Below, piece by piece: positions 3,115 through 58,720 of a stretch of DNA of 64,000 nucleotides (the stretch's first letter is position 1; each line of letters begins with the position of its first letter). The notes under the pieces were generated by a model. The model searched no databases, had not been told where the DNA came from, and was given only the letters and a program-made list of their open reading frames with translations. The position numbers were made by a program, and so were the translations under genes. The DNA lies in contig CAZSVL010000006.1 of assembly GCA_964610305.1 (NCBI GenBank), positions 13,973 to 77,972 of the forward strand, written 5' to 3'. This DNA comes from an uncultured Gammaproteobacteria bacterium (GTDB taxonomy: Bacteria > Patescibacteriota > Patescibacteriia > Magasanikbacterales > JBBTXJ01).

Positions 3115-4515
3115 ATGCAAGAGACCTTTTGGTCAGATGCCAGTGATAAAGGGCTAACAGCAAAGGCGGTGATTTCACCAACGGGCGCTGTTATTGCCAA
3201 GAATTTTGGGTCCAGTGATCCCCTGAGAAATGGAGACATTGGCCTAGAGGTTAGGATTAAGCGAAAGAACGCCCCCGAGCTCTCGGCAGAGCAGAGAATG
3301 GCCGCGCAGGGAGTGGCAGAAGCCATGAGCGATAAGCTCAAGGGTCATTTGGGTCAGGAACGGCCGGCTCATAAATGGCCGCTTGGCGCGGTTGTGAGAG
3401 TTCGCATGGACAACTTTGGTGGCGTGGGCTTTATTGTAGCTCAGAGTGATACGCATTTAGCGCTGATGGATTTCAACGAGGATTGCTCCGCGCTACTGAG
3501 GACGGACTATCCGCTCTCTGCCATTGTCATTGAGCAGCTAGAGCTTCCAGCCAATGGAAAAGCCGGCTTGGCTCTTAGGCAATTGGAAGACCAGGTTGAA
3601 AGGCTTGGGCGGCTTGACTTAGACGAGTTTAAGGGCATTGCCACGCATTTTCGTGGCGATCCTGTTGCCGTTTGTCATGGCGCGCGGTTTGCCGATGGCT
3701 GGGATCAATTGTGTTTTCTCTTTGAGATGCTTAAGGGAGAGGATCCTGAGCATCGCGCCACCTTGATCAGCTTTGCTAAGCCTCATTTTGCGTATGACCT
3801 TTTAAGCAAATTTACTGTTCCAGTCCAAATGGCAGAGGTAGCATTGCTGGGTGGTACACAGGAGAATGAGTCACGTGCAACAGCTGCCATTAAGGTTTTG
3901 ACAGTGTTTCCATCCGATACGGTGATAGGCTCTTGCGGTAGCGCAGCTCTGTTTACCTATTGGAAAAAGATGGGCGAAGGGCGCAGGAATGTCATCTCTA
4001 CTCTCACGCGTAGCGAGAAGTTACACACGGCATATAAGGCTTCATTTTTTTGCTTTGATGTCGCTACCTGTCGCTCTATGCTGAATTCATGCCATGAAAT
4101 GGTTGCTGAAAAGGTTGCAGAAAATCTAGCTTACCTGCTTGACACCGGAATGTGTGCTGGCGAGGACATTAGCCTCAGTGAGCTAAGAGACATGCTGGGT
4201 TTTCTAGCCGATGATTTCGCCGGTGTTGCTAAGCATATAGAGTCTGTTCCTTTTTTGGAAACACTTGCTTCTGATTGCTATTCTGATTTTAAGCAAGCAC
4301 AAAGAGCCATTTCTGATAAGTGGCTACAGCTAACCGGGAATACTGTGCCAAAGAAAGATCACTTTCGTTGGCAGCACGATGAATCCGGCAAATGGTCTGA
4401 AGACGTGTATTGCTATGATTACAACGATCAGAAGGCTTTGGGGATGAGAACGCACTCTTTGGCTCTCACGGATGACGGCCTGCTTGTTCTGGCAAGCGTT
4501 CCTTTCAAAGATTAA
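3115..4515 (+). CDS. Hypothetical protein, paralog A (466 aa)
   Basis: N-terminus (FWxDxxxKGxxAKAVxSPxG...LREGDxGLExR) is clearly homologous to the adjacent ORF 4721..6211. Confidence 0.6.
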   Translation: MQETFWSDASDKGLTAKAVISPTGAVIAKNFGSSDPLRNGDIGLEVRIKRKNAPELSAEQRMAAQGVAEAMSDKLKGHLGQERPAHKWPLGAVVRVRMDNFGGVGFIVAQSDTHLALMDFNEDCSALLRTDYPLSAIVIEQLELPANGKAGLALRQLEDQVERLGRLDLDEFKGIATHFRGDPVAVCHGARFADGWDQLCFLFEMLKGEDPEHRATLISFAKPHFAYDLLSKFTVPVQMAEVALLGGTQENESRATAAIKVLTVFPSDTVIGSCGSAALFTYWKKMGEGRRNVISTLTRSEKLHTAYKASFFCFDVATCRSMLNSCHEMVAEKVAENLAYLLDTGMCAGEDISLSELRDMLGFLADDFAGVAKHIESVPFLETLASDCYSDFKQAQRAISDKWLQLTGNTVPKKDHFRWQHDESGKWSEDVYCYDYNDQKALGMRTHSLALTDDGLLVLASVPFKD

Positions 4516-4720: not shown

Positions 4721-6211
4721 ATGAGTACGTCATTTTGGGAAGATAGCGGTAGAAAGGGAATGGTTGCAAAAGCAGTTGTTTCTCCTGATGGTACGATTAT
4801 TGCACGAAATCATCATAAAAAGGCTCCGCTCCGCGAAGGAGATGTTGGCCTTGAGATTCGTTTGGATCGTAAAAAGGCAGAGGAGATCACGCCAGAGCAG
4901 CGCATGGGCATGCAGAGTATTGCCGGCGCTATGGCAGATCATCTGCTCGTCTATGTAGGAGCACGTAAAGAGGCTCCTATGTGGGAAGAGGGCAATGTTG
5001 TAGAAGTCACGTGTGATGGCACTACTATCCGCGGCGTGGTTCAGAGGGTTTCGCAAACGCATATCCGGGTAGCAACTTTTAGTGAGGAGTATCATCAAGA
5101 TGAGGAAAAAGCACGTATTGTAACGCGCGATTTCCCCTTGGCTCTGTCTGCAGTTTGGCAGGTGGATGTTCCGCTGCCTGAGTGTGATGGTTTGCCTGGC
5201 CTTGCGCTTGCTACTTTTTTGCAGAACGTTGATGAGTCTTTGCTTCCGTATTTGTTTGAGCATCCTCACCTTGTTGAGTACGTGCTCAAGCATATGAATA
5301 GCCAACGGATTCAGCCAGGTTACTATGTGGGAAAGTACCTTGATTACATTAATGCGGATCATTACGTTGATTTAATCTCTGAGGCTTTTGATAATCGGTT
5401 CCTCAGGCTTATTGGCAGAGCTACTACGGATCAACTCTCGCAGATCGCTTTGCTTGACAAGACTGAAAATGCTGCAGTTGCCAAGCCGCGCAACAAGTAT
5501 CGGACTGCTGCGGTTAGAGCGCTTGTGCAGGAAGATAAGAGCATTGAGCGTCGGCCTTTTGGTAAGCCTACTAGCGTTGCATACCATGACGTATGGCGGG
5601 CATTGACGCCTAACAGAAAGCGCTTGCTTTTGGGTTTGTGCACCGCAGATAGCCCCGCGCTTACTCACGCTATTAAGTACGTGTTTGATTCAGAGGTTTT
5701 ACTTCATCTCTTAAGCGAGGATGTTGGTCTAGTGAACTCGCAGGCTGTAAGTGCTGTACGTAGGAATCTTGGTCACCTCATTAGTATCGGACTTTCTGTG
5801 GAGGTTTTCTTTGGGGGTGAAGATTTTAAAAGGGAGATGTATCGTATTTGGGAGGGTCTGTGTAACTCATCAAGGCCGGGTTTTCTGAGGCAGATAACTG
5901 ATCGCAAGCTTCTGGAAACCATCATCTTCGGCCTAGATAGAGGTGATGGAAATGTAGAAACGGTCTGCGCTCGGTGGATGGAGCTTTCAGAGGATATTCC
6001 CAAGCCTCAAGATGAGGGATCCTTCATCTATAGAGATGACAAAGGTAACTGGCATGGGCCATTTCTGAAGTCTGATGACTACGATCATCTTCTCAGAGAG
6101 AAAAAGTTGACCAGCCTGATGCTGTGCGTAACTCCCGATGGCATTATGAGAATTGCTCGATACGCTCTTGAGATGTCTGATGCTGATCTTTCGTCGTGGG
6201 AAAGGGCATAA
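4721..6211 (+). CDS. Hypothetical protein, paralog B (496 aa)
   Basis: Paralog of 3115..4515. Confidence 0.6.
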   Translation: MSTSFWEDSGRKGMVAKAVVSPDGTIIARNHHKKAPLREGDVGLEIRLDRKKAEEITPEQRMGMQSIAGAMADHLLVYVGARKEAPMWEEGNVVEVTCDGTTIRGVVQRVSQTHIRVATFSEEYHQDEEKARIVTRDFPLALSAVWQVDVPLPECDGLPGLALATFLQNVDESLLPYLFEHPHLVEYVLKHMNSQRIQPGYYVGKYLDYINADHYVDLISEAFDNRFLRLIGRATTDQLSQIALLDKTENAAVAKPRNKYRTAAVRALVQEDKSIERRPFGKPTSVAYHDVWRALTPNRKRLLLGLCTADSPALTHAIKYVFDSEVLLHLLSEDVGLVNSQAVSAVRRNLGHLISIGLSVEVFFGGEDFKREMYRIWEGLCNSSRPGFLRQITDRKLLETIIFGLDRGDGNVETVCARWMELSEDIPKPQDEGSFIYRDDKGNWHGPFLKSDDYDHLLREKKLTSLMLCVTPDGIMRIARYALEMSDADLSSWERA

Positions 6212-6392
6212 AGGAAATCAATAAAATCAGACTCGGCGTCATGTACGTCGGGTTTTTTAATTGTGTATAACTCTAGACGCAAAATGCGCTATAATAACTG
6301 CAATAATTAATTGCAGCAACTTGATGTTTTTTGTGTTCGCCTTTTGGTGGGTAGAAAAAACAACCCCAACGCTGCAGTAACGGAGGTGTGCT

Positions 6393-9300
6393 ATGATTCC
6401 CCTATCGGAATCACACTCATATTGGGTGTGTAACAAAAGCCTTTTTAAAAAGGCATTCTTTGTGGCCAGTATTATGGCTGCTTTTTTATTAATGACCGTT
6501 CCTGTTTTTGCTCAAGAGATTGCAGACAAGGACAATGATGGTATTGCTGATGGCATTGATAATTGTATAGACATTGCCAACGCCCAGCAGATAGATGCGG
6601 ATCAGGATGGAACGGGAGATCTCTGTGATATTGATGATGATAACGACCGCATTGCAGATGGAGAGGACAACTGTCCTACCACTGCAAACCCTAAGCAGGC
6701 GGATACAGATGGTGATGGTGCCGGGGACTTGTGTGATGTAAACACCGATGAAAGCGCCGCGCAGTCTGCAGAGGCGTTGCAGGATGAGAATGTTACGCTA
6801 GAGGACTTAGGCACCATAGAAGCGCGTGTTTTGCCAGACAGTCCTTTGCATTTTTTCAAACGTTTTGGTCGTGGGGTACAAGAGGCTCTTACGTTTGATC
6901 CTGTTAGAGACGCTAAATTAAAATTGCAGCACGCTAACCAGCAACTTTCAGAAACCAAGCAGATGATAGACCAAAAGGGAATGGCTAATGTGGCACCCGC
7001 TGTAGTTAAAAGTGCGGTTAAGAAATATCAAAACAAGCTAGCAGACATTAAGGATGTAGCAGATGCTCTGAAAGCAGAAAAAGTAGACAATCCAGAGGTT
7101 ATAGACAGGTTGCTCAACGATGTAACGGATAAACAGCTTAAACAACAAAAAGTATTAGATAACATTGCTGCGCAGGCACTAGAGGTAAAAAGAAAAGCAA
7201 AAGAAGAGGGCAGAGATATAAGCGATGACGTAGATGGCGTTCTCTCTGGCGTAAAAGACGTTAAACAGAGCGCCATGGAAGATTTTACTGCTACACTGGC
7301 CACGGTTGAAGACTCTGCATCTAATATTGGTGTTAGGGTTACCTCGGTGATGGATCGTCAGAAAGGATCAGAATTTAAAGAGCTTAAAAACTTGGAAATT
7401 TTGGAATCCATGCGCAGAGCAGCTCCGGCAGATGTAAAGGAGGCTATAAGCATAGCCAAGAAAAATACCGTAGAGAAGTTTGAGAAAAATCTGAGGGATC
7501 TGCCAGCCGTAGTAAGAGCTGATAAGTTTGAGAATTACGTAAAGCACGCTACGTCTGACGAGACAAAATTGGTTAAATTGTTAGATGAGATTAAAAAATC
7601 CAGTGGCATACCGGCTGACGTTCTTGATATTTTAGAAGAAGCAAAAGAAATTGCCGTGCGCAGATTTGAAGAAAAGTTGAGTCTGGTAGAAGATGATGTT
7701 GTTCAAGCATCTCTGATTTCCGGATTAAGTGTAGAGGATGATAGCGATATTGATGATTTGATTGTGCTAGAGGACTTTAAAAACCGCATGAAGGTGGGAG
7801 AGAAGCAAAAGGAGTTGATGGATGAAATGCATAACAGATCCATTGATGCCTTTAAGCGCAAATTTACTGACACTGAGTCTGCAGACCAGGCAGAGCTTTT
7901 CAGGAAGCTCTCGCAACAAATGCTTGATAACCCATCTCCTAAGACCTTTAAGCTGATGCAGACGCTAGAGGATGAGGTGCGTTCAGATCCAAGTAAGCGC
8001 GCATTCTTAGATCAGCTAGAGGATGACATGCAGCGCCAGTATGAGAATCAGTACAGAAAAGAAGGGGATAGGTTTATGGATCGTGTAGCCACACTAGACC
8101 CAAGCGATATTGCCATCCTGCAATCGCTAGATTTTGACTCTAATTTTGAGGACCGCTTGGTGAAAAGATCTGCAGAGAAGTATAAGAAACGCATGAAGAA
8201 CATTGTGGTACCAGAAGAGTTTGATACCTTCCGCGAGCGCTTCTTTGATATCCCAGACTTTGTGGTACAAGAAATAAAGAAAAACGACACAGATTTTGAG
8301 CAAGCCATGCAGTTTAAGGTGCGTAAAATGGAAGAAACGCGCGCTGAACGCGAGCGTGAGATTGCAAGGGCCTCACTGGATTATGAAGAAAGAGAGCTTT
8401 GGCACCAAGATGACAGGCAGCGCCAGAGAGAAGACGACGAATTCTGGAGACAGCTCAACAATTCTGATTGGGAAGACTTTGATACCAGAAAGCAGCTTTG
8501 GGATGAAAAAATTAACGACAGATATGACACCATCGATTCCCGTTTTGACAGGCAAAAAGAGCTCTTTGAACAAAAAATGGCTCTTGACCCATGGTGTGAT
8601 GAGGTTTGTAAGCAGATTCAGCTGCAATTCTTAGAACAAGATTTGCGTCACGAGAAAGAGCGCTTGGCAGACGATTTGATACGTGAGCGAAACAGAATTG
8701 AGGCAGAACAAGTGCAGCATCAACAAAATGATCCTCTCTATGGAAAATGTGATTCTCCAGAGAGTTGTGAATATTACTGTAGTACCAATCCTGGCGTGCC
8801 TGGATGTGAGTGGGCTATTCACGTGGATAAAGGTCAAGATTGTGGCCCTGGCGCTTACTGGGATTATGGTAGGCGACAATGTGAGAGCTTTGACAGCCAA
8901 GTATACAGTTGTGAGCCTGGCTACTACTGGGATTATGCTGTGAATGGTTGTACGCCAGATCCATATTATGTTCCACCAACTAACTTTAGAACCTGTGGTT
9001 ACGGCATGTTCTGGAATGAGCAATTTGGTCACTGTGAGAGCGCTGTAACGGTGGTAACGGTGCCGCCATCCGGCGTGCCAGGAGAGCCAGCACCTACGCC
9101 GGGAACTACGTATCCATCTGGCTTCCCGCCAGACACCTACCCAGGGGATGATAGCTATTGTCCATATGAGTACCGCTGGGATAGCTTTTACTCAGAGTGT
9201 GTACCAAGAGACTACCAAGATTGTGGACCAGGCTATTACTATGATTTCTATGACAGAAGATGTCACCGAGATTGGCAAGATTGTGGCCCAGGTTTCTACT

Positions 9301-12300
9301 GGGATGCTGGCATTGAGCAGTGTGTGGAGGAAGATACCTATATTCCAGAGTTTGGTGTTTGTCCTCCGGGATTTGTTTCTGGTCCAGCAGATGGTTGTAT
9401 TCCAGAGTGGCGCCCAGAGCCAATTAACCCAGGCGTATACTGCCCATCTGGTGAGATATATAACCCAACGACAGACCGTTGTGAGGTTGAAACGCAGCCA
9501 GAGTATTGTACGCAAGAGTATAAGCCGGTCTGTGGAACAGATGGCAGCACCTTTACCAACGCTTGTTACGCTAAGCAGGCGGGTGTCGGTATAAAAAATG
9601 AGGGAGAGTGTGAGAGCACTCCTTATCCACCAGTAGTTGAGCAGTGTTCTAACACAAAATACAATATTGGAGATTCCTACTCATGTGATTATGGCGTTTG
9701 TCCTCACGGATGTAACTACGGATTCAACGGTTGTCCGGTAGAATGTTCTGCTGCTCCAACGGAATACTGTGGAGACGGTATTTGTCAGGAGTATAATGGC
9801 GAGATCTATAGTTGTGAGCAGGATTGTGGAGAAATAGAAAGACCAGAGCAGTGTGCCTCTTATTGTGAGCAGTCATGTGGCTATGAAAACGGAAGCTACT
9901 GTATGTTTGATAACTACGGTTGTGCCCAAGGATGTAGTCCAACGTGTGATGGTTATGATCAGTGGTATGATCAAGAATTAGGACGTTGTATTAACGATAA
10001 AGAATATTCAAAGATTCACGGTTGTTCTGAGCATGAGTACTATGACACCTATTACCGCGTCTGTAGAGAAAATTACTGTCCTGCCGGTTGGCAGTGGGAT
10101 GTAGACTCTGGTGGTTGTGTGAGTCTTGATGATCCAAGTTGTAAGTCTGAGTGTACCGACAGATGTAGCAATAACAGCTGGTGTATGTACGCAGATAACG
10201 GATGTGCCGTAGGTTGCTCGCCAGAATGTCCAGAAAATCAGTATTATGATCAGAAGCAAAGCAAGTGTGTTTCATATTATGACGGCACGGATTGTAAGGC
10301 CACTGATTACAACATGGGCGAGAGCAGTGACTGTAACTACGACACCTGTAGTTCTGGGTGTGAATATAGCGATTCAGGCTGCCCTACTGGCTGCTACACC
10401 CCACCAACCACAGACAAATGTACTGATAATGGATATAACGTAAGCGGAACCGCGGCGTGTGATTATAATGCGTGTTCAGAAGGGTGTACCTGGGATAACA
10501 ACGGTTGTCCTAAGGGTTGCTACGAGCATACGGGTGGTACCTGTGGAGACAACAGATGTGATAGCGGAGAAGAATCATGGTGTTCAACTGATTGTGGCGG
10601 AGAGCAATGTGATAGCACCAAATATAATGATTTCTCTGGATCGTATCAGTGTAGCTATAGCGAGTGTCCATCTGGATGTAACTGGGATGATCGTGGGTGC
10701 GCTGTAGGGTGCTATGATCCTGATTACCAATGTCCAGCTTCTGATTACTCGCGCGGGTACAATAATAGAGAATGTAATTACAACGAGTGTAGCAGTGGTT
10801 GTAATTTTGACACTAATGGTTGCCCTACTGGTTGTATGACCGGAGATGACATGTGTAAATACATGGATGGTTGGTCATATGACAGTATAAGCGGTGGATG
10901 TGTGAAAGACGGCGTAACATGTAGTCAGCCAACATCATGTGATAGTTGCAGAGGACATGGCAATAGCGATAGTTGGTGCAATTACGATTATGATGGTTGT
11001 CCGATGGGTTGTCAGAGTAGTACCTATGGAGACTGTAGAAATAATTCTGGAGAGTCAGCTTGTTGGGCTCAGCCGGGTTGCTCATGGTATACCGAAAATG
11101 GCAGCAGCTTCTGTGAGGGAAATGATTATTATGGCCCACCATCCGCATGTGACTATGATGGTTACTGCGAGGGGGGAGAAAGCTCTAGTTCATGTTCTGA
11201 CTGTTCCTATGATAATGGCGTCTGTACTGGCGACAACAGATCTTCATGTGAATCTGTACCGGATTGTTATTGGTCTGACGACGGACACTACTGCTTCTAT
11301 CAGTCATACACGTGTAATTACGACGGCATCTGTGATGCAAATGAGAGTGGTCCTGAGTGTGGAGACTGCTCGTCCAGTCCTGGCACTTCTATGTGTAACA
11401 ATGATGGCTCTTGCACCTTTGGAGAAACCTATGAGAATTGTGCAGGAGATTGTCCGTATACCGACGGTATGTGCGGAAACGGTAATTGTGACCCAGGAGA
11501 GAGCTATGACAATTGCAGCTCTGACTGCCAAGCTTTAAGCTGTAACAACAACGGATTCTGCGATATTTGGGAGACAAATGCAAATTGTTACCAGGATTGC
11601 CCACCAGATGGCACACTGGGTACGTCATGTAACAACAATGGCTACTGTGATTTTAATGAGAGTTCAAGCTCATGTCCTGCTGACTGTACCAATGCTACGG
11701 GCGGCACCTGTTGGGGCAAAGCATATGATATGTGCGAGACCAGCGGCTGCATATGGTATGAGAATCACTACGATGGATCGCATTGTGACGATTATGCGCA
11801 TGGCAATGCCAATGTATTTCTAGGTTGTAACTATGATGGTATTTGTGGAAACGATGAAGATTATGGTTCATGCCCTGCTGATTGTGGAACGGGCGGAATA
11901 GAGTGTAACTACAACGGTGTGTGCGATGGGTATGAAACCCCAATGCTCTGTCCAGGGGAGTGTGTTGTGAGTGGAACGGACTGTAATTACAACGGTATCT
12001 GTGATCCGTCTGAGACTATGGCGTCATGTTCTAGCGACTGCTACAGCAATGGCGGAGGCAGCACAGCCTGTCCAGACAATGGCTACAACACAGGAAGCGG
12101 CTCTACCAGCTGTAACTACAGCACGTGCGCTAGCGGTTGTCACTATGATGGCCAAGGTTGTCCAACCGCTTGTATGGAGTTAGCGTGTCCAGATATCGGA
12201 TTCAATATTCCGGGAACCATGAACTGTGATTACGCAGCATGTAGTGAAGGGTGTAGCTTTGATGGCCAAGGTTGTCCAAGTGGATGCTTTGCGCCGCCAC

Positions 12301-12386
12301 CACCACCGGTCTCAGGACTGCTTCAGCGATTAGCTACCGGACTCTACGCTCTGATAACGCTACCGGCACGAGCACTAGGATTATAG
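6393..12386 (+). CDS. Giant secreted protein (1997 aa). Signal peptide, thrombospondin type 3-like Ca-binding repeats, long charged coiled-coil region, Kazal-like module, then a very large cysteine-rich repeat region.
   Basis: GGAGG RBS. N-terminal hydrophobic segment. DxDxDGxxDxxDNC repeats at roughly nt 6525-6740. CGTDGSTFTNAC Kazal motif near nt 9505-9615. Many CxYxxCxxGCxxDxxGCPxGC and CNxxGxCDxxExxxxCxxDC repeats from about nt 8750 to the stop. Confidence 0.75.
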   Translation: MIPLSESHSYWVCNKSLFKKAFFVASIMAAFLLMTVPVFAQEIADKDNDGIADGIDNCIDIANAQQIDADQDGTGDLCDIDDDNDRIADGEDNCPTTANPKQADTDGDGAGDLCDVNTDESAAQSAEALQDENVTLEDLGTIEARVLPDSPLHFFKRFGRGVQEALTFDPVRDAKLKLQHANQQLSETKQMIDQKGMANVAPAVVKSAVKKYQNKLADIKDVADALKAEKVDNPEVIDRLLNDVTDKQLKQQKVLDNIAAQALEVKRKAKEEGRDISDDVDGVLSGVKDVKQSAMEDFTATLATVEDSASNIGVRVTSVMDRQKGSEFKELKNLEILESMRRAAPADVKEAISIAKKNTVEKFEKNLRDLPAVVRADKFENYVKHATSDETKLVKLLDEIKKSSGIPADVLDILEEAKEIAVRRFEEKLSLVEDDVVQASLISGLSVEDDSDIDDLIVLEDFKNRMKVGEKQKELMDEMHNRSIDAFKRKFTDTESADQAELFRKLSQQMLDNPSPKTFKLMQTLEDEVRSDPSKRAFLDQLEDDMQRQYENQYRKEGDRFMDRVATLDPSDIAILQSLDFDSNFEDRLVKRSAEKYKKRMKNIVVPEEFDTFRERFFDIPDFVVQEIKKNDTDFEQAMQFKVRKMEETRAEREREIARASLDYEERELWHQDDRQRQREDDEFWRQLNNSDWEDFDTRKQLWDEKINDRYDTIDSRFDRQKELFEQKMALDPWCDEVCKQIQLQFLEQDLRHEKERLADDLIRERNRIEAEQVQHQQNDPLYGKCDSPESCEYYCSTNPGVPGCEWAIHVDKGQDCGPGAYWDYGRRQCESFDSQVYSCEPGYYWDYAVNGCTPDPYYVPPTNFRTCGYGMFWNEQFGHCESAVTVVTVPPSGVPGEPAPTPGTTYPSGFPPDTYPGDDSYCPYEYRWDSFYSECVPRDYQDCGPGYYYDFYDRRCHRDWQDCGPGFYWDAGIEQCVEEDTYIPEFGVCPPGFVSGPADGCIPEWRPEPINPGVYCPSGEIYNPTTDRCEVETQPEYCTQEYKPVCGTDGSTFTNACYAKQAGVGIKNEGECESTPYPPVVEQCSNTKYNIGDSYSCDYGVCPHGCNYGFNGCPVECSAAPTEYCGDGICQEYNGEIYSCEQDCGEIERPEQCASYCEQSCGYENGSYCMFDNYGCAQGCSPTCDGYDQWYDQELGRCINDKEYSKIHGCSEHEYYDTYYRVCRENYCPAGWQWDVDSGGCVSLDDPSCKSECTDRCSNNSWCMYADNGCAVGCSPECPENQYYDQKQSKCVSYYDGTDCKATDYNMGESSDCNYDTCSSGCEYSDSGCPTGCYTPPTTDKCTDNGYNVSGTAACDYNACSEGCTWDNNGCPKGCYEHTGGTCGDNRCDSGEESWCSTDCGGEQCDSTKYNDFSGSYQCSYSECPSGCNWDDRGCAVGCYDPDYQCPASDYSRGYNNRECNYNECSSGCNFDTNGCPTGCMTGDDMCKYMDGWSYDSISGGCVKDGVTCSQPTSCDSCRGHGNSDSWCNYDYDGCPMGCQSSTYGDCRNNSGESACWAQPGCSWYTENGSSFCEGNDYYGPPSACDYDGYCEGGESSSSCSDCSYDNGVCTGDNRSSCESVPDCYWSDDGHYCFYQSYTCNYDGICDANESGPECGDCSSSPGTSMCNNDGSCTFGETYENCAGDCPYTDGMCGNGNCDPGESYDNCSSDCQALSCNNNGFCDIWETNANCYQDCPPDGTLGTSCNNNGYCDFNESSSSCPADCTNATGGTCWGKAYDMCETSGCIWYENHYDGSHCDDYAHGNANVFLGCNYDGICGNDEDYGSCPADCGTGGIECNYNGVCDGYETPMLCPGECVVSGTDCNYNGICDPSETMASCSSDCYSNGGGSTACPDNGYNTGSGSTSCNYSTCASGCHYDGQGCPTACMELACPDIGFNIPGTMNCDYAACSEGCSFDGQGCPSGCFAPPPPPVSGLLQRLATGLYALITLPARALGL

Positions 12387-12392
12387 ATAACA

Positions 12393-12426
12393 AAGAGGCT
12401 GGCTTGCCAGCCTCTTTTGGTTTTCT
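12393..12426 (+). terminator. Intrinsic terminator of the giant gene
   Basis: Stem aagaggctgg/ccagcctctt followed by T-rich tract. Confidence 0.6.
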
Positions 12427-12472: not shown

Positions 12473-12705
12473 AGAAAGGAAAACTAGCAACTGAGCCGAA
12501 TTTGAGTGATATCCTCTGGCCGACCGACAGTCCGCGCCCACCGGCGCGGCTGTCTTGAAACTCCCCCCTGAAATTTTTTGCTTCGCAAAAAAACCAGGTT
12601 TCAGGTTTTCCGTTACATCGTCCAGAGGATGTCATTGAAATTTTACTGTTTTGGTTAGACACAGATTTTGTTTCACTTTAGTTTAAAAAACGCTATAATA
12701 AGACC

Positions 12706-12954
12706 ATGAAGCAATTTATTCTTGGAGCCCTAGCAACAGCAATAGGTATGTATATGGTTATAAAGACAGAATCTGTTTTGAATATGTTTGGCAGTATGCG
12801 TTGGGCAGAAGAAAAACTCTCTGGCAGATCTAGGATGGGGTATAAATTAATAGGGCTTTTGGTGGTCATCATGGGACTTTTGGCGGTAACGGGTATGTTT
12901 GGAGGATTGGCCAGAGGCGCACTTACAGCTATTTTTGGCGGTGGCGGACAATGA
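12706..12954 (+). CDS. Small membrane protein (82 aa)
   Basis: Two hydrophobic helices. TATAAT sits just upstream. Confidence 0.4.
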   Translation: MKQFILGALATAIGMYMVIKTESVLNMFGSMRWAEEKLSGRSRMGYKLIGLLVVIMGLLAVTGMFGGLARGALTAIFGGGGQ

Positions 12955-39674: not shown

Positions 39675-39741
39675 ATAACTAAGCCGGCCAGAGTGCCGGT
39701 TTTATGGTATAATAATGGTGCCAAAAGGAGGCAAAAAAATC

Positions 39742-40296
39742 ATGACTTCCCAGCAAAAAATAAGTGTGCTTGGACTGGGCGTATTTGCTATTGCTGCAAT
39801 TACGCTTGGTTTGTTGCATATAAATCAGGGAATTATTAGACCCATCACACCAGACACGGCTGATGATACGCTAGAGGTAAGCAAAGAGTTGGCAGAAGAT
39901 ACCACGTACGCTGAGCTCTCAAGCAAGGATACAGACAATGATGGCCTTAATGATTATGAAGAATTGCACGTGTTTGGAACCAGTCCATATCTTACCGATA
40001 CAGACGGTGATGATTTGGATGATGCGGTAGAGATACAATCCGGAGGAGATCCTAATTGTCCAACCGGCAGAACATGTGGGGCGGTGATAGAGGGCAGCAC
40101 ATCCGGAAATTCAGGTGTTGTAGATTCTATTGATCCGGCTGCATCCTACGGCGCTCAGGATATGGAGCCAGATACCTTAAGAAAGCTTTTGGCAGAGATG
40201 GGATTTCCCTCAGAGCAGATAACCTCTTTAAGTGATGATCAGATAGTACAAATTTTTGAGCAAGCTCTTGTGGAGCAAGAAGCGGCAAATAATTAA
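39742..40296 (+). CDS. Membrane-anchored protein with Asp-rich Ca-binding (TSP3/dockerin-like) repeats; first gene of the large + strand block
   Basis: AGGAGG RBS. N-terminal TM segment. DTDNDGLNDYEE and DTDGDDLDDAVE repeats. Confidence 0.5.
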   Translation: MTSQQKISVLGLGVFAIAAITLGLLHINQGIIRPITPDTADDTLEVSKELAEDTTYAELSSKDTDNDGLNDYEELHVFGTSPYLTDTDGDDLDDAVEIQSGGDPNCPTGRTCGAVIEGSTSGNSGVVDSIDPAASYGAQDMEPDTLRKLLAEMGFPSEQITSLSDDQIVQIFEQALVEQEAANN

Positions 40297-40301
40297 TAAC
40301 C

Positions 40302-43300
40302 ATGCAAAAAAGGCACAAGCCACCCGTGTTTAAACGGATAATGCTGGGAATGCTCAGCGGTTTTATGGTTGTGCAGATTGGTTTTGCAGCACTCATGGTT
40401 CCGCGTGTTGCGCATGCGCAGTGGTATGTTTTTGATCCTTTTTCTGTTATCTCTGCTGCCATTGATCAGATTTCAAACGCGGCAAGAGTAGTTGATGAGG
40501 CGGTAGGTGGGGCTCTTTCTACTGCCGTACTTGGCGCTTCTCTTCATTTGGCGCAGTCATTGGCGTATGATTCTGCTCAGTGGATTGCAGATTCAGCTTG
40601 GGGTAAAGAGCCGGCATTTTTTGCCAGCAATATGGGGGATTACCTACTGGATCATGCTACAGACGGAGCCGTAGACGCACTGAACGAAATGTCAAAAGAG
40701 TGGATTGGACTGGATTTGTGTAAGCCAAAGGATCCTACGTTTAATTTGCTCATTCAGCTTGGTTTTAGAAAACATCATGATCCTAAAGTTGATTGTAGTT
40801 TTGATCAGATGAGTGATGCGTGGGATAAAAAGTGGGAGCAATTAAAAGACAAATACAATGGCTGCGCTGGCAACACCTTTGGCTCTGCCAGTGTAGATGA
40901 AAAAGCCACGGGAAGGTCTGCAAAAAAAGGCGGCAACTTGGACGAGTGTATGACCGCCATGGCTAAGACCATGTTTAAGCCAGATAATACAGAGATTGGT
41001 CTTGCCATTAATGCACGGCTAGCGATTACAAAAAAAATAAGAGCAAAAGGACAAATTGCTTTGGAAGAGAGAAAAGAAGGACAAGGGTTTAAATCCAAAA
41101 AAGGTGGCGCAGCTGGTGCCTATATTTCTAAGCCGGCTCCTCTTGTTAAAGAAGAAGGTAAAGCATCTACAAAAGTAAAACAGGAGGACAGAACCTTCCA
41201 GATGATCTCTGGTCAGCTTGGGTCTGGGTATAAGGCCGGTTTGGCTGCTATTCCTACGCTTTTTTTGAGTCAGTTGCTCAGCGCAAATGGAGAAAACTTT
41301 TTTGAATGGTTAAAGAAGCCAGGAGATCAAAAAAAGAGCGATCCGTTTGATAGATTGGCTGATATAGATGGCTTAAGTAATCCTAATTCTGGCGATGGCG
41401 GTTTTGGGTTGTCACCCCAAGCAGAGAGAGCATTTGAGACCATTGCCATAGGAGACCCTTCAACTATTGATATTATTAGCCAGTTTACAGCATGTCCCTC
41501 AGAGGATGGCACGGTTAACCGAGGACCGCATGATTGTGTGATGGATGCTAAATTTGCACAAGCAGTAAGGTTAGCTGATTCTGGCAGGGCAATTACCATA
41601 GCTGAGGCCATTGACAGAACAATGCTACAGCCGGGGTGGAGACTGATTCCACCATCAAACGTGGGCGCTAACTCAGAGGTTTCTTGCAGGAATGAAGCCT
41701 ATTGTTTTTCAAACATAGCAAAATTAAGGCAAGCGAGAATTCTGCCATTGGGTTTTGAAATAGCAGCCTCAGAATCGCCGGAGGGTAGGCACTGGACATT
41801 AAGAGAAGTGGTGGATGGTTTTTTGAGTTGTAATGGAGATGGGCGGAGGGATAACGACCATCCGTTCTGTCATTTAATTGATCCAAATTGGATTTTGAAA
41901 GCGCCACCAGCAAGATGTAACGCTACTGTTCCCGGGCCCATGCTAGAGGCATCTGACACGCTGGTGAGAAAAAATGTATGCGCTGATACCGTAACTTGTC
42001 TACAGGATGATGGTCGCGGAGCGTGCGAGAGCCCGTGGGGGTACTGTCTAAAGGAAAAAAATATTTGGAGAACAGGCGCAGATAGTTGCGCGGCACAATA
42101 TTCTAGTTGTACTACTTACACAGGTAGCAGTGCTGGCGCTCAGAATAAAGTAAGCTATCTTTCAAAAACTATAGATTTTGGCCAGTGTACCGCAGAAGAC
42201 GTGGGATGCCGTGGGTATCTGACGCATCAACTGCTGCAGGATGACGGCACTTATGGTTGGCCTTCTGTTCTAGATGAGCTGGCCGGACGTCCGATGCATT
42301 TAACGGCAAAGGCTCAAGAATGTACAGAGCCCGGGTGCACCTTGTTTACTAAAAAGGATGGCACAGAAGTGCACATCAAAAAGGCGCCTCATTATTTAGG
42401 GTGTTATGATCAGGTTGATCCAGACAGCCCAGCCAGACAAGAGGGGGATTGGCCTCAGAAAATTGCAGACTTGGCGTTGTTGAATCCTGCGGCTGAGTGC
42501 GGTCAGTACGCAGCTGTTTGTGCTGCAGAAGAAGAGGGTTGCACCAGCTACGCGCCAGAAAACGGAGATCCAACCGTGCCAGCCATTGTGGCAGAATCTG
42601 ATTACTGTTCTGATCAGTGTGTGGGTTACGATTCTTACAAACAATTAGAGACAGATTTTGACACCGCAGAATTCCCTATTCACTTTATTCCTAGCACCGC
42701 GCAACAATGTAACGGCGCGTTTGTTGGGTGTGATCAGTTTGTAAATGTAAATAGTGAGCAGTTTGAGCATTATAGTTTTGTAAAACAATGCGAGAGGCCA
42801 GAAGAAGATGATGCCAACTCTGGCGTATTTTACGCGTGGGAAGGATCAGATATTCAGGGGTACCAACTGCGGTCTTACGTTTTGAAGACCTCACTTGAGA
42901 TACCGGGAGGTGGGCAGTGGCTTATGGAGCCATATCCTATTCCTGCTTACGCAGCGGCTTATGATGAAGATCTAATGATTTCTTATCATGATGTTTGCAA
43001 TCAAGAGCTTTATGAGGCTCGTTTGGCAGATCAGGATTGTAGGGAGCTTTTTGACAGAGAGGGGCGCAAATCATACAGACTTTTGGCTCATACCATTACC
43101 GTCTCAGACCAGTGCCATCTTGTCAGAAAGACAAGTGCAGATATTATTGAATTGGGAAACGTTGTCCGTAGGCAAAATGACTGTGAGCAAGATGCAAAAG
43201 GTGTCTGGGAAGATGGGGCATGCAACGTCTGTAAAGGCGGCGGTGAAAACAGAAACGGCACCTGCATGTATTGGGTATTGCCATCAGAAGCCATAAGCTG

Positions 43301-46300
43301 CCCCGCAGAAGCCGCCGGATGCAGAAAATACACCGGAAATGCTGGCGGTAACGTAGAAGAAATTGTTCGCCACACGTTTGAAGATGTGTTGCCAGAAGAT
43401 TTGCAGGCATGGGATCAAGGAGAGGTTTCTGCTGAATCTGTCACCGTTGGCGGACACTCTTGGAAAGCTGTAAACAGAACAAATGTTGTAATACAGGCAG
43501 AAAAAGATTCAAGTTACACGTTTTCTTTCTGGGCAAAAGGTGAACCGGGTTTTGTAACATTAGAGTTTGGCGGGGTAATTGCGGATAATGTAGGCGGAGA
43601 GCCAACCGTGCAAATCGTGAATGATTGGCAACAATTTACACTTGGGCCAATTTACTTTAAAGAGGTCACAGATGTGCTCTCTAGAGCTACTGTTACTTTC
43701 AACATGAATGGCATAAGAGATGCAAATACGTTTTATGTGGATAATGTCATTATAAAAAAGACCATCGCGCACACCACCTTGGTAAAAGACAGCTGGTCCA
43801 CTCCCCTTGCGTGTGATAATAATCCGCAAGATAATTTGCCAGGAGAGGCGCTTGGTTGCAAGGCATATAGAAGCAGTGCTGGTGCCCGCGTGGCGCTTAA
43901 ATCTTTCTCTAATTTGTGTAGAGCAGAGGCAGTAGGATGCGAGAGATTGGTAAATACGCACAACTCTTCTCAATCAGAAGGAAAAACCGTTGGCATGGAG
44001 TGTGGCATGTTCATTGAGGGTCTTGTGGAAGATAGAATACACCCAGACAGCAGAGAGTGTTTTGCAGATATTGATTTAGATGGGGATGGTAGCATTGATA
44101 ATCAAGAGGCGGTGTGTACTGTTCCTGTTGGAGAAGACACATGCTTCTTTGAGATGCCTCGCGCTATAGATTATGACAACAATGATAAAGATATTTACCG
44201 CTCCGGAAGTTCTGTATTTGTGGTACCTGCAGACAGTCTGGCTTACTTGGTGAATAAAGCGGAACATCGCTGCAGTCCAGATCAGATTGGTTGTATGGCA
44301 TTGGGAGAGGTAACGGGAGAGCGCAGCGAGGATAACAGACGCGTCATAAACACCGTCAATAAAATTGTTGTTCCAGATCAGTTTGACAGCATAATGTGTA
44401 ACGCCTCTCTTGTTGGTTGTGAGGCTTATAATGTGAAAAGTTTGGCAGATCAGAGTAACAGAACGGTTTATTTTAAAGATCCGGTAGCGGCTGGAAGGGG
44501 TGTGTGCGAATACAAAAAAGATGTAGACGCCACACTAAGAAATGGCGATGTGGTAACCGGTGCCAGTGGTTGGTTTGTGGCAGGAAGTGATCCTCTCAGG
44601 CCATGTGAAGAAAGGCTACGCAAAATAAATGACTTTCAGTTGCCGAGCCAAGGAGATGCTTTATATGAGTTTGCTCTTGCTCAAGTAGGCGTCTGTCCTG
44701 CTACCGCAAATTCTTGTACAGAGATGGTTGATCCAGCGGATACATCTCAAACGCATCCAGACGGTAAGCCATATTTTGTTTTGGATAACGGAAAGTTGGA
44801 TAAGACAAGTTGTAACAATAAAGCAAGTCTGAAAGAAGGGTGTGTGTTGTTTGATGACAGATCAGTGCCAAACAAGAAGTATCAGGTGGGACAGACCTAT
44901 GATTTAAGTGCTGCTAATGATAATGCGCTTGTAGAACCTGTGTTTATTGGGGCAATTCCTCCTTTTACGTGCAGGGATGATGAGTGTGTAGAAATTCTAG
45001 ATACTCACGAGTCCGTATCTCACCCTGGATTTATCGGTGAGCTTGTGTACCAGGCGCCCCAAGGATCATATTCGTTGATAGATGACGGGCTTTTTGGTGT
45101 CCGTACTTTTACGGTTCTAGACTCATGTAATGCTGGTTTTGCAATGCATACAACTCCAGGCAATACCTATACCGACAATAAGAGGGTGATACACAATGTT
45201 GAAGAAGATCTTTCATTTAGAATTTGTATACCAGAAGATTTGGTTAATACCGATGTAGCAAATACTATTGTTAAGGTGAGTAGAGATAGGGCGTGTTCTG
45301 AGTGGTTGTATTGCCAGTCCCATATGACAGTTACGGACCCTAGTACAAATCAAAAGAAAAATGTTTGTGGATCTGTAGGTGTTTGTGATTCATTTGGGGA
45401 TGTCATAGATGGGATTGCTACCTGTAAGAATGTTGTTGCTAATCCAGGATTTTCAGGAGAAAAATTAACCAAGGCGGCTTACGCAGAGCGTTCGGTTGGT
45501 TGGTATGACGAGGAGTTTACCGGTCATTCGCTCTACAATAAGTATCAAATTTATGACTATACGTTTGTTAAAAGTGATGTGGAGGGTGTGGGCAAAGGAA
45601 GGACTTATTTGGTGAGTATGCCATATGATAGGGAGGCTGCGGCTCTTGCTTGTGAAAATGATGGCGGAATTGATGATGACGGAAGCAATTGTAGGGTTAA
45701 TCGTTCACCGGGTACTTGCATAGCAGGTTTGTGCGTACAAAAGCTTGGCGGCGGGCCAATTGTTTTGGCTGATGCGGGAGAGCAAGCACTGGCGTGCAGA
45801 GGATATGCACACTCGCAAGCGCCATTTACTTTTTCTGGTAAGGATATTACATGGGTTGAGACTGCGGCTAATGGAGACCAAGATGATCAGCAAAAAGTAG
45901 ACGCTACTGCAATAATGCAGTCATTAAATATAAGCGGCTTTGATAACGCAGCCATATGCCAGAAAGGCGATGAATGCGTATGTTCTTACAAAAAAGTGGA
46001 GTATGGAGATGGAAGAGAACAACGTTATTTTGATGTTAATCGGCAAGGAATTCCAAAAGGCGTTTGTGGCGGTGGCTTTACCGCAGGAGTAAACTCCAAA
46101 TCTAAAAAGGGGAGAGCGTGCGATACCCCGGTAGATTGCAGGGATGACAGATATGGTGATAATGACTCCCCTGAAGCTTTAAGAAATAGACGGGATGGCG
46201 ACTGTTTATATAAAACCAATGTGGCAACCTTTAATGGCTGGAGCGGCTTTTGCATAGATCAAGATCAGAGTGTTGAAACGCCGGGCAGTGGTTCAGAAGG

Positions 46301-48566: not shown

Positions 48567-49496
48567 CTAACGAGTCATTGTAAATTTGCAGAAAACGCGA
48601 AAAAAACTCCGTGGTTCAGTGCTGCTATCAAGGTAGTCGCCTTCACACGTACCGGTGATAGTATTTTTGTCTGCAGAGAGTGTTCCTGAGAAGAGCAGCT
48701 GGTGATCGGGGTCATCTCTGTCGCCCACATGAGATCTGTGAAAAAACCCGTTTGGTTGGGGATCTACCCGGCCGTTTCCTCCACGAAATCCATGAAGTGC
48801 GGAGGCACCACTCGTTTTCACATAGAAAGAGCATCCTTCTTGCCTGATGACTCTCTCGTTTTCTCTCCACATGTCCCGATCGTAGCGATGCTGCATCATA
48901 TCGTAATCATAGTCAACGGGAGTGACATCGGAATACGTGATATTCCACGTACCATCAAACAAGGGATCGGCTCCATTACAGCCCCAGCTTTCATCTACGC
49001 TGCCGTTGCAGTTGTCATCCACCTCATTGCCGTATTTTTCTTCAAGAGCTGGGATATCAGGATCTTTATCATTGCAGTCAAGACCGCCGCATTCAATGGC
49101 AGATTCGCCATCACGGTCATAATCTAGCGGCTGAAACAGGCACGTGCCGGAGTCATGATCGCACAGGCCATCCTTGCAGGGATCCGTATTTTGGCATGAG
49201 AAATCGCCGGCACATGGAACGTCACTGCGCTCTACCTTATCTCCGGTCCACCAGGGATCAATTTCCTGAGGATCGTCACTATTTTCACTTCCTGCATCCG
49301 CATCTTCATTCTTCACGCAGGTTTTTGAATCAAAGCAGGTGTAATCTTGCGGACAGCTTTTATTGCTGCAGTCAAGATCGTGGCCGTCAGGTCCGCTACC
49401 TTCACCATGCGTTCCACCGGGTGCCGCCTCATCGCCGCCACAGGAAACCAGCAGACTCATCATCAAAAGAGCAATAGTGCTTTGCAAAATTCTCAT
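48567..49496 (-). CDS. Cysteine-rich lipoprotein with MopE-like putative metal-binding motif
   Basis: LLVSCGG lipobox. CGGLDCNDKDPDIPALEEKYGNEVDDNCNGSVDE matches DCDD...PGAxExCDGxDNDCDGxxDE. Confidence 0.55.
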   Translation of the reverse strand: MRILQSTIALLMMSLLVSCGGDEAAPGGTHGEGSGPDGHDLDCSNKSCPQDYTCFDSKTCVKNEDADAGSENSDDPQEIDPWWTGDKVERSDVPCAGDFSCQNTDPCKDGLCDHDSGTCLFQPLDYDRDGESAIECGGLDCNDKDPDIPALEEKYGNEVDDNCNGSVDESWGCNGADPLFDGTWNITYSDVTPVDYDYDMMQHRYDRDMWRENERVIRQEGCSFYVKTSGASALHGFRGGNGRVDPQPNGFFHRSHVGDRDDPDHQLLFSGTLSADKNTITGTCEGDYLDSSTEPRSFFRVFCKFTMTR

Positions 49497-49596
49497 GTAT
49501 CCTCCGTTTTTTTGCTAAGCTGAGTTGTTTTTTATCGCTACCATACTAGCGTAGCATGTTTTTTTAGCACGAATCAAGAAATTTGTCAATAGTAAT

Positions 49597-50781
49597 TTAT
49601 TTTTGTTCAGGTGACATTTTTGCAATTGAAAAACTATTAAAGATTTTTACCATTTTATTTTTTTGCAACGCTAGTGGTTGCATGACCGGCTTTACTACGT
49701 CTGACGGAATATTTTTTTCAATGCCTGAGTCGTGTATGTAAAATTGTGTAAGCTCATCAATGTCAGAGGTGATGTGATCAACTTTATTTTTTATATGCTT
49801 TTGTGCGTTGGCCCATTTTTCTTCAGAAATGGTCTTGCCGGTGTCTTTTAGAAGGTTACAGATTTTTTGGTGTGTCTGCTTTGTTTGCTCAGGCGAGCAT
49901 GCAATGCCAATGTTTATAAAACCTACGTTGTGCCAACTGTGGGATGTGACAAACATATCGTAAATATCAGAGCTACCGTCTCTAAGAGTATTCTGGTATT
50001 CAGAGAAAATGTGGCAGATGGGCTCATGAAGAAAGCGGAGTGCATTGTTTAAGCCAAAACCTTTTAATGTCACATATAAAAAACTTTCTTGCCAAAATCC
50101 GTTCATGCTTGTGTGTGATGGAATGTACGTGATGAGCGGGTATGTTGGCAGTTTCCCTACGGGGAGGCTAGCAAAAGCCCTATCAATGGCTAAAGCAAGT
50201 TGTTTTTTTTCTGGGATATCACCTACGGCAATAAGGGTTAGGCGTGTTTTTTTTAGGATGTTTTTTAGTGTCTTTGCTAGCACATTTTGACTAGCGGCTT
50301 CTAGATTTTCATCAACATGACTGGTGGGTGTTGAGTATGGCTTGTTGAGCGTTTCTTCATCATAATCCTCCATGAGAATTTCAAAAGGGTTGCGTTGGTG
50401 GGTACGCCTCTCGTTTCGCATGGCGTTCACTTCTTTTCTTACAGAATTTCTTTCAAAAAGATCAGGGTTTTCTTTGCTAAAAAGATGGCCAAGATCATCT
50501 ATAATTTTTTCACATTGCAGAGACGGAATATTGCTAAACTCTATTGTCATGTATTCACGATACGTATGACCGTTTATGTCTATTTCTGTTTGAGAATTTC
50601 CTTGCTGAAGGCTTTTAACCAATAGGTGTTCTATTAAGTGATGAAGACCGTTATAACCTGGCGGGTCAAAAACAGAGCCGGCACCGTCTATTTTTAGTAC
50701 CAGATTTGCGTTGGTTGCATCAGAGAGACGGTGCGCTATTAGCTTAATTCCAGATTGAGATAATAAATAGGGAGACTTCAT
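49597..50781 (-). CDS. M16 (pitrilysin/insulinase) family zinc peptidase-like protein, single domain
   Basis: HHLIEH inverted zinc-binding HxxEH motif near the N-terminus. Confidence 0.55.
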   Translation of the reverse strand: MKSPYLLSQSGIKLIAHRLSDATNANLVLKIDGAGSVFDPPGYNGLHHLIEHLLVKSLQQGNSQTEIDINGHTYREYMTIEFSNIPSLQCEKIIDDLGHLFSKENPDLFERNSVRKEVNAMRNERRTHQRNPFEILMEDYDEETLNKPYSTPTSHVDENLEAASQNVLAKTLKNILKKTRLTLIAVGDIPEKKQLALAIDRAFASLPVGKLPTYPLITYIPSHTSMNGFWQESFLYVTLKGFGLNNALRFLHEPICHIFSEYQNTLRDGSSDIYDMFVTSHSWHNVGFINIGIACSPEQTKQTHQKICNLLKDTGKTISEEKWANAQKHIKNKVDHITSDIDELTQFYIHDSGIEKNIPSDVVKPVMQPLALQKNKMVKIFNSFSIAKMSPEQK

Positions 50782-50895
50782 TGATTAAAACGTATCACTT
50801 TATTGAGAGCATTTCAAGCTTTTAAACAAAAAAAAGGGGGTGTGCTCGCTAGCACATCCCCAAAAAAAGGGGTGCCTCAGGCGCACCCGGGCGCG

Positions 50896-51066
50896 CTACT
50901 TGGGAACGCGCGTGCCCCTTGTGCCTCTGGACTTGGATCCAGAAGACTTGTTCACGTTGTGCTGGCCCTTGTAGCCAGTACCGGGAACGGGGTTGTTTCT
51001 GCCTTTAGAGCCAGAGTAGCCGCCAGTCTTGCCGCTATTGCCTCCGCTCTTTCCGCTGGAACCCAT
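50896..51066 (-). CDS. Small Gly/Ser/Lys-rich protein (56 aa), absent from the ORF track (<60 aa)
   Basis: GGAGGTGA RBS 5 nt upstream of the ATG. Followed by two intrinsic terminators (about 50820-50895) on the minus strand. Confidence 0.4.
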   Translation of the reverse strand: MGSSGKSGGNSGKTGGYSGSKGRNNPVPGTGYKGQHNVNKSSGSKSRGTRGTRVPK

Positions 51067-51199
51067 GCTTCACCTCCAGTGTGGATGGGTACTTCCACCG
51101 TATTGGGTTTTTGCTATTGTGTCAAGTTCAACTGTGGATAAATAGGGAGAGCCTTTTTAGATTTTTTAAAAAAAGATCCTCGGTAAGAGGATCATTATG

Positions 51200-52846: not shown

Positions 52847-52855
52847 CTCTCTCCC

Positions 52856-56861: not shown

Positions 56862-56883
56862 ACCAAAGGTCCCTTGTTACTAT

Positions 56884-58272: not shown

Positions 58273-58275
58273 TCT

Positions 58276-58710: not shown

Positions 58711-58720
58711 GCATTAGTTT

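Follow-up and report, generated by a model that had tools for sequence, protein, structure and literature searches.

The window analysed here, a stretch of 64,000 nucleotides from contig CAZSVL010000006.1 of an uncultured bacterium placed in the Patescibacteriota (Magasanikbacterales; assembly GCA_964610305.1), carries a giant gene on its forward strand (positions 6393–12386), a complete coding sequence of 1997 amino acids (aa) plus the stop codon. The product combines an export signal, thrombospondin type-3 (TSP3) repeats, a long helical head, a cysteine-rich stalk with a Kazal-like module and a conserved C-terminal tail. An N-terminal head is paired with a C-terminal tail family-wide, and these two ends appear to be what the family conserves, with an exchangeable middle between them. 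Judged from its sequence, the protein would be a Sec-exported cell-surface fibre or adhesin of Patescibacteria held by its cationic hydrophobic tail, a reading that in our judgement stands about even. The protein contains 157 cysteines (7.9 %), nearly all C-terminal of residue 735, is also very rich in Asp and Gly, and has a large acidic excess (359 D+E vs 159 K+R) with an overall net charge of about −200. From N- to C-terminus its features are:

6393–6512, + strand: Sec-type signal peptide (aa 1–40), with a KK n-region, the hydrophobic core AFFVASIMAAFLLMTVPVFA and a predicted cleavage site between VFA and QE
6519–6740, + strand: TSP3 repeats (aa 43–116; PF02412), with four DxDxDGxxD motifs and 4 Cys
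6783–8762, + strand: all-alpha head (aa 131–790, 660 aa), including DUF5667 (aa 146–246) and an invariant DPWCDxxC motif (aa 732–739)
8841–9482, + strand: eight of the 13 type C hairpins (aa 817–1030), with a Pro-rich linker at aa 885–920
9507–9611, + strand: four-Cys Kazal module (C1039–C1073), placed by the Kazal_1 and Kazal_2 hidden Markov models (HMMs) and alignment with 2m5x
9645–12293, + strand: array of putatively disulfide-rich modules (aa 1085–1967): seven of type A, three type A variants, eleven of type B, five of type C and three of type D
12294–12383, + strand: Pro-rich hinge and conserved tail (aa 1968–1997; APPPPPVSGLLQRLATGLYALITLPARALGL), the only positively charged segment (net +2)

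An identical protein (P0001) is present in NCBI on an 80 kb contig, and an ortholog from an independent ENA metagenome (P0002; 2034 aa) shares 71 % identity over 99 % coverage. About 25 further long relatives are 32–50 % identical, and the named ones belong to 'Patescibacteria group bacterium' or 'Candidatus Magasanikbacteria'. Orthologs of about 42 % identity are collinear with the giant protein, and in them 91 % of the cysteines are conserved vs about 40 % of other residues; the cysteines are under purifying selection.

The head is the best conserved part of the protein in the ortholog comparison. Pfam DUF5667 (PF18915) matches aa 146–246 with 45.3 bits against a cut-off of 27, and named relatives are annotated as 'DUF5667 domain-containing protein', so that the giant protein is a true member of the DUF5667 proteins of Patescibacteria; the Pfam model, however, spans about 100 aa, whereas the conserved unit in this family is about 660 aa. 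An HMM of the head matches 27 of 27 close relatives end to end and collinearly, with a length of 655–665 aa. Searching 1.84 billion cluster representatives with the head profile retrieved 1964 proteins at E ≤ 1e-3 (a lower bound, counted on representative proteins of 50 %-identity clusters), 351 of them at E ≤ 1e-30, and among the 1964 matches the domain always starts 30–150 aa from the N-terminus. The region had been described in the initial annotation as a long coiled-coil spacer. An AlphaFold2 model of the head built on a 20-sequence alignment (predicted local distance difference test score, pLDDT, 87.3; predicted template modelling score, pTM, 0.77) contains 26 predicted helices, mostly of 10–40 residues and interrupted by loops; with the constant length in relatives, this argues against a two-stranded coiled coil, and that candidate was rejected. 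Because the head is matched end to end in relatives and recurs in so many representatives, it is better described as the family-defining domain. Foldseek searches of the head against the PDB and BFVD returned no significant match, the hits being generic alpha-solenoids or elongated helical proteins with TM-scores of at most 0.2, and internal repeats were not found when the helical region was compared with itself by BLAST. A literature search returned no paper mentioning DUF5667.

The head's only cysteines lie close to its C-terminal end. The sequence DPWCDxxCxxIQ (window positions 8586–8609; aa 732–739) places an invariant CxxxC pair on one face of the head's last long helix, and a third cysteine, at aa 786, is nearly invariant.

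At the opposite end of the protein, the terminus ...YALITLPARAFGL recurs in both Cys-rich and Cys-poor family members. P0001–P0008 hardly differ in their last 14 residues, and the tail is also present in P0013 and in the Cys-poor proteins P0062, P0147 and P0159, which are distant relatives elsewhere in their sequence. A terminus of the form LPA[RK]A[FLM]G[LF] was found in 12 family members, four of them Cys-poor. When compared with 93 unrelated TSP3-containing giant proteins as controls, a looser terminus (hydrophobic helix, [AT][KR]A..G[FWL]) occurs in 25 of 164 family members vs none of the controls, and a hydrophobic stretch in the last 14 residues occurs in 48 of 164 vs 5 of 93; the motifs were defined after inspection of the data, and these figures therefore describe the set and no more. 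Tails ending in ...LFGF or ...ALLP are seen in other subfamilies.

A Pro5 hinge followed by a hydrophobic tail had been pointed out in the initial annotation as a possible sorting or anchoring signal. Both elements are present as quoted; the tail is conserved and could anchor or sort the protein, but it matches no known sorting model. An LPXTG sortase signal was rejected on the terminus itself (...ITLPARALGL-stop), which has no T-G and nothing downstream and has no NCBIfam match. The PEP-CTERM, PGF-CTERM, GlyGly-CTERM, MYXO-CTERM and type IX secretion system (T9SS) signals were likewise rejected, with no NCBIfam or Pfam match in aa 1891–1997 or 1951–1997 at E ≤ 10. As for homologs of the tail, which the same annotation had suggested seeking, they occur in Cys-rich and Cys-poor relatives as described above, but a profile search of the database returned a single 58-aa fragment and missed the known positives P0001–P0008, a sign of poor recall. 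This fragment (P0121) carries the conserved tail, and both it and P0009, a 'partial' family member of 1411 aa, lie on contigs of 52,662 bp; a split or frameshift in that assembly may have affected the P0009 gene.

The N-terminus agrees with the earlier description of the protein as secreted. A signal peptide is present, with its cleavage site between VFA and QE placed by the −3/−1 rule rather than by a predictor, and the A-Q-[ET] junction that follows the hydrophobic core is conserved in orthologs across the family; cleavage would occur at this junction. The TSP3 repeats named in the initial annotation were recovered by Pfam TSP_3 (PF02412) at aa 68–102, with 44.7 bits over two stretches against a gathering cut-off of 25. 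The putative calcium-binding motifs are DKDNDGIAD, DADQDGTGD, DDDNDRIAD and DTDGDGAGD, interspersed with the cysteines C58, C78, C94 and C114. Such DxDxDGxxD repeats with paired cysteines are also seen in thrombospondin, in COMP and in bacterial TSP3 surface proteins, and the block occurs in hundreds of bacterial giant proteins, although the remainder of the present protein is unrelated to them. Within the family the TSP3 block is confined to the giant protein and its 71 % ortholog and is absent from P0003–P0008, a distribution that points to a recent, clade-specific add-on.

Between head and tail, the cysteine-rich region (aa 791–1967) comprises about 1180 aa in about 38 small modules of at least five types:

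Type A: Cx3YNx7CxYxxCxxGCx5GCPxGC, 36 aa, 6 Cys; 7 copies
Type A variants: 3 copies
Type B: C[GN]x[DN]GxCx3Ex4CxxDC, about 20 aa, 4 Cys; 11 copies
Type C: CxPGxYWDxxxxxC, hairpin with 2 Cys; 13 copies
Type D: 4 Cys; 3 copies
Kazal: non-classical, 4 Cys; 1 copy

This census, made by counting and aligning the repeats, bears out the roughly 1200 aa of Cys-rich repeats first described. Both repeat motifs quoted at that time are found in it as types A and B, but two is too low as a total, types C and D being absent from that description. The number of cysteines is even in every module type and their spacings are fixed and module-specific, and the modules are probably disulfide-bonded. Types A and B occur in variable copy number throughout the close family. 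The part rich in types B and D (aa 1561–1890) is the most variable, with 53 % identity to P0002 vs 71–95 % elsewhere and with module-sized insertions and deletions. An AlphaFold2 model of a type A–A tandem (pLDDT 78–88) consists of small beta-hairpin units, and the type A fold has no match in the PDB.

Whole-protein scans with Pfam and NCBIfam returned TSP3 and DUF5667 only, and the Kazal and CBM14-like matches come from scans of segments. Type C modules give partial matches to the chitin-binding peritrophin-A domain (CBM14; PF01607) that cover positions 20–48 of the 53 in the CBM_14 profile and sum to 27.9 bits over five stretches; although this exceeds the cut-off of 22.1, each unit has two cysteines and not six, and CBM14 was rejected, the two having only the central hairpin in common. 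That type B resembles the Myxococcus cysteine-rich repeat (TIGR02232), as had been proposed, was not borne out: no NCBIfam match was found in the Cys-rich segments at E ≤ 10, though very weak matches may be hidden by the HMMER filters. Nor is the suggestion of an S-layer-like protein supported, because domain scans found no S-layer or SLH-type domain and 7.9 % of the residues are cysteine; S-layer proteins are typically Cys-poor, and so high a content is atypical for them. When the Cys-rich region alone served as database query, the only hits were four members of the same family; the known positives P0001–P0008 were not among them, a sign of weak recall.

The Kazal-like module reported earlier was confirmed by a segment scan and by matches to solved structures. 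When aa 1030–1083 were scanned alone, Kazal_1 (PF00050) scored 36.3 bits against a gathering score of 21 (E 5.5e-9) and Kazal_2 (PF07648) scored 32.5 bits against 22.8; the match reaches the gathering score in the isolated segment only and did not appear when the whole protein was scanned. Solved Kazal inhibitors are matched as well, among them GmSPI-2, the silk protease inhibitor 2 of Galleria (40 residues; 2m5x), with which the alignment is gapless (E 1.2e-11). The classical six-Cys pattern is not present; there are four cysteines, the equivalents of C1 and C5 being absent, which places the module in the non-classical two-disulfide subgroup. The members of this subgroup (GmSPI-2, PDB 2m5x/4hgu; horseshoe-crab CrSPI-1) align with it gaplessly at all four cysteines (PMC4169406), and they have in common with it the seven residues between the first two cysteines and the PVCG-DG-TY-N-C and AGVG..EGEC motifs. 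The disulfides of GmSPI-2 are Cys5–Cys24 and Cys13–Cys39, its P1 residue is Thr7, and it inhibits subtilisin and proteinase K (PMC4169406); by alignment with it, the present module would form C1039–C1058 and C1047–C1073, with Gln1041 as P1. It differs from these inhibitors in this P1 residue (Gln instead of Thr) and in being a single copy inside a bacterial protein of 1997 aa. The reactive loop reads C-T-Q(P1)-E-Y-K-P-V-C, and the motif YCTQEY(K/A)PVCGTDG is invariant in eight orthologs. Kazal-like motifs were found in 27 of the 164 family members examined, mostly one per protein. The module could block subtilisin-like or other serine proteases. A literature search returned nothing relevant on Kazal domains in Patescibacteria.

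These features are consistent with the following model, for a member of the Patescibacteria that is probably related to Magasanikbacteria. After Sec export and removal of the signal peptide, the mature protein would be a very acidic, modular molecule in four parts: the TSP3 cap, the 660-aa helical head, a disulfide-bonded stalk, and the Pro-rich hinge with a cationic hydrophobic C-terminal helix. This helix would tether the protein either to the cell membrane, at its outer face, or to a partner in the envelope. The rigid, protease-resistant Cys-rich stalk would cross the wall, possibly aided by the Kazal module, and the head, with its calcium-binding TSP3 cap, would be displayed distally, where it would touch host cells, other cells or surfaces. 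Tethering, orientation, adhesion and protease inhibition are all proposed roles within this model.

Several observations favour such a surface fibre. The TSP3 repeats and the Kazal module, both extracellular disulfide modules, follow an export signal. The high conservation of the cysteines, their even number in each module type, the confident hairpin model of type A and the constant length and N-terminal position of the head point the same way. Many head-domain relatives are Cys-poor and carry Pro/Gly-rich low-complexity sequence between head and tail, which suggests a variable spacer between two conserved ends, and Gram-positive surface proteins likewise have a wall-spanning variable region between conserved ends. 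Termini with the tail motif are commoner in the family than among the controls, and the tail is the sole cationic segment of the protein. The variable segment of the stalk is rich in insertions and deletions of whole modules, as reported for the Cys-rich surface proteins of Candidate Phyla Radiation (CPR) bacteria, which are proposed to serve in attachment (PMC4736985).

Other observations weigh against a tail-anchored fibre, besides the definition of the tail motifs after inspection of the data. With 13 residues, the uncharged hydrophobic run of the tail is too short to form a classical transmembrane helix, and the predicted helix is of low confidence (pLDDT about 50). The tail is near-invariant in proteins that are 35–50 % identical elsewhere, which suggests specific protein recognition rather than membrane partitioning. 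No other tail-bearing open reading frame (ORF) was found in the window or at two syntenic loci (112 kb altogether), and many family representatives have no obvious tail, though many of these are fragments. There is no conserved neighbour gene that would indicate an anchoring enzyme, the gene order being common to close relatives only, and an oxidising system needed for the disulfides was not found in the part of the window that was scanned.

Several of these points would suit the leading alternative, itself unlikely, in which the protein assembles with itself from head to tail, the tail helix of one molecule docking into the head of its neighbour by helix complementation to build a polymeric filament or an envelope lattice instead of fixing single molecules in the membrane. 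The tail accompanies the head whether the middle is Cys-rich or Cys-poor, it is conserved more strictly than a lipid anchor requires, and its low pLDDT in isolation is as expected for a segment that folds upon binding; in addition, no second tail-bearing protein occurs within the 112 kb. However, the tails of the subfamilies (FGF, LLP, KA..GF) are quite different, seemingly with no matching change in the head, and a cationic hydrophobic tail also fits membrane binding.

It is distinctly improbable that the protein is freely secreted as a matrix or defence protein, that is, as a multivalent protease-resistant scaffold that combines Kazal inhibition with calcium-dependent binding, its tail, a signal for secretion or processing, being removed. 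This explanation draws on the invariant reactive loop, on the recurrence of the Kazal-like motif in the family, on the absence of a recognised anchor motif, and on the inhibition of subtilisin and proteinase K by the closest solved Kazal relative, GmSPI-2 (PMC4169406). Nevertheless, the protein has a single Kazal module along its 1997 aa and most of the family lack one, so that inhibition cannot be the core function of the family; conservation lies in the head and tail rather than in the Kazal module. Glutamine at P1 is also unusual for a potent Kazal inhibitor.

A metal-binding or redox role, with the 157 cysteines binding metals in an anoxic habitat (as a metallothionein-like copper or iron sink), has very little likelihood. 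CPR bacteria are often found in reducing groundwater, the Cys, Asp and Gly content is very high, and ORFs elsewhere in the window match the MopE putative metal-binding motif. Yet the cysteines have fixed, module-specific spacings and an even count per module, TSP3 and Kazal are established disulfide domains, the type A modules are modelled as compact hairpins, and Pfam and NCBIfam scans of the protein found no metal-binding family. Finally, an assembly artefact or pseudogene arising from collapsed repeats has nothing but the repetitive look of the protein in its favour, and this explanation, of which the misassembly was a concern in the initial annotation, is effectively refuted, as repeat copies compared as DNA share only 60–87 % identity over stretches of about 30 nt with no long tandem repeats, the ORF is single and uninterrupted with its own Shine-Dalgarno sequence and terminator, and collinear orthologs with conserved cysteines come from independent samples.

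The signals that flank the giant gene, as read from the DNA, are:

6229–6255, + strand: terminator-like hairpin closing the upstream gene (11-bp stem with 5 GC pairs, T-run), from a consensus scan only
6290–6295, + strand: possible −10 box TATAAT, from direct reading of the 181-nt upstream spacer (weak evidence)
6383–6387, + strand: Shine-Dalgarno sequence GGAGG, 5 nt before the ATG, from direct reading of the sequence
12392–12417, + strand: strong terminator-like hairpin, 6 nt past the stop codon (11-bp stem with 6 GC pairs, T-rich tail)

The position of GGAGG 5 nt upstream supports the start codon at 6393, and with hairpins on both flanks and a Shine-Dalgarno sequence of its own the gene looks like a separate transcription unit. 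The TATAAT sequence was not picked up by a two-hexamer promoter scan, and an Rfam scan of the window found no RNA genes. In close relatives the giant gene is followed by genes for an 82-aa protein with two transmembrane segments, a methyltransferase, a small membrane protein, YraN, NusA, YidC, one or two further ORFs and Wzy_C. NusA and YidC, encoded shortly downstream in the window, mark the DNA as bacterial. The synteny downstream of the giant gene is confined to close relatives, with none at the P0019 locus, and no functional partner can be inferred from the gene neighbourhood.

The 82-aa ORF directly downstream (12706–12954, + strand) has two predicted hydrophobic helices and no Pfam match; a promoter-like site (12672–12699) precedes it, and the methyltransferase gene begins within it, with an overlap of 4 nt. 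Its sequence and position are kept at both syntenic loci (16171–16413 in L001 and 13984–14229 in L002). Just upstream of the giant gene are two tandem paralogous ORFs (3115–4515 and 4721–6211, + strand; 466 and 496 aa). Their full-length identity is 26 % (E 7e-39), their N-termini are closely alike (M..FW.D...KG..AKAV.SP.G..IA.N), and neither has a Pfam match or an obvious signal peptide.

Elsewhere in the window, a second giant ORF (40302–48494, + strand; 2730 aa) has a hydrophobic N-terminal segment and no Pfam match, and is immediately preceded by a 193-aa ORF (39715–40296) with a match to the bacterial TSP3 repeat. Among the ORFs of a block on the minus strand (48567–53905), one of 309 aa has a lipoprotein-like N-terminus (LLVSCGG), two of 548 and 349 aa begin with hydrophobic segments that contain Cys, and another is of the M16 peptidase type; the MopE putative metal-binding motif is matched by the ORFs of 309 and 349 aa, and Stig1 by that of 548 aa. 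At about 52–54 kb the GC content (0.52) is higher than in the rest of the window and the GC skew is inverted. The block is followed by a cluster resembling a Gram-positive type IV secretion system (54033–62162, + strand), in which two large ORFs (942 and 462 aa) come first, then a PrgI family gene (58276–58710), a 232-aa ORF (58721–59419), a VirB4/TraG P-loop ATPase (59416–61614) and VirB8 (61611–62162); neither the two large ORFs nor the 232-aa ORF has a Pfam match.

With regard to known systems, the general kind to which the protein belongs is not new. Large Cys-rich extracellular proteins have been described in CPR bacteria of the Peregrinibacteria/Peribacteria by Anantharaman et al. 2016, with strain-level variation and with a role in attachment that was proposed in that work (PMC4736985). 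They resemble the present protein in CPR origin, signal peptide, length (>1500 aa), Cys content (7–8 %) and strain-level variation (PMC4736985), but they are known by composition and weak similarity to the Myxococcus repeat, whereas the family studied here is defined by the DUF5667 head and the tail; it is by these descriptions that the two are set apart. The initial view of the domain mix as unusual for bacteria is thus apt for the joint presence of TSP3 and Kazal but not for giant Cys-rich extracellular proteins as such (PMC4736985). A literature search returned nothing relevant on cysteine-rich proteins of Magasanikbacteria. Wall-anchored proteins of Gram-positive bacteria (MSCRAMM, LPXTG/sortase) share the signal peptide, an N-terminal functional domain, a repetitive or Pro-rich stalk and a hydrophobic, cationic C-terminus; unlike them, the giant protein has LPARA at its very end, with no transmembrane helix and basic tail after it, and its disulfide-rich stalk is unusual among Gram-positive adhesins. 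What is new is the definition of the 660-aa head, the pairing of head and tail, a type A fold with no solved relative, and the set of modules.

Few bacteria of the CPR/Patescibacteria have been cultivated, and a life spent attached to other cells is assumed for them; the giant protein bears on how they build their surface and attach to hosts, a little-explored subject. On its own it is one more uncharacterised giant surface protein. Its family, with at least 1964 representatives and no studied member, is one in which the conserved parts (head and tail) can now be told apart from the exchangeable one (the stalk), and it adds a case in which modules usually seen as parts of the animal extracellular matrix, TSP3 and Kazal, occur in CPR surface proteins. 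As a tentative and somewhat doubtful generalisation, a DUF5667 head together with a tail ending in ...[AT][KR]A..G[FWL] may constitute a so far undescribed two-ended surface-display or self-assembly system that is widespread in Patescibacteria. If so, the tail would act as a new kind of signal for sorting, anchoring or docking, and the exchangeable middle, whether Cys-rich or Pro/Gly-rich, would set the distance of the head from the cell.

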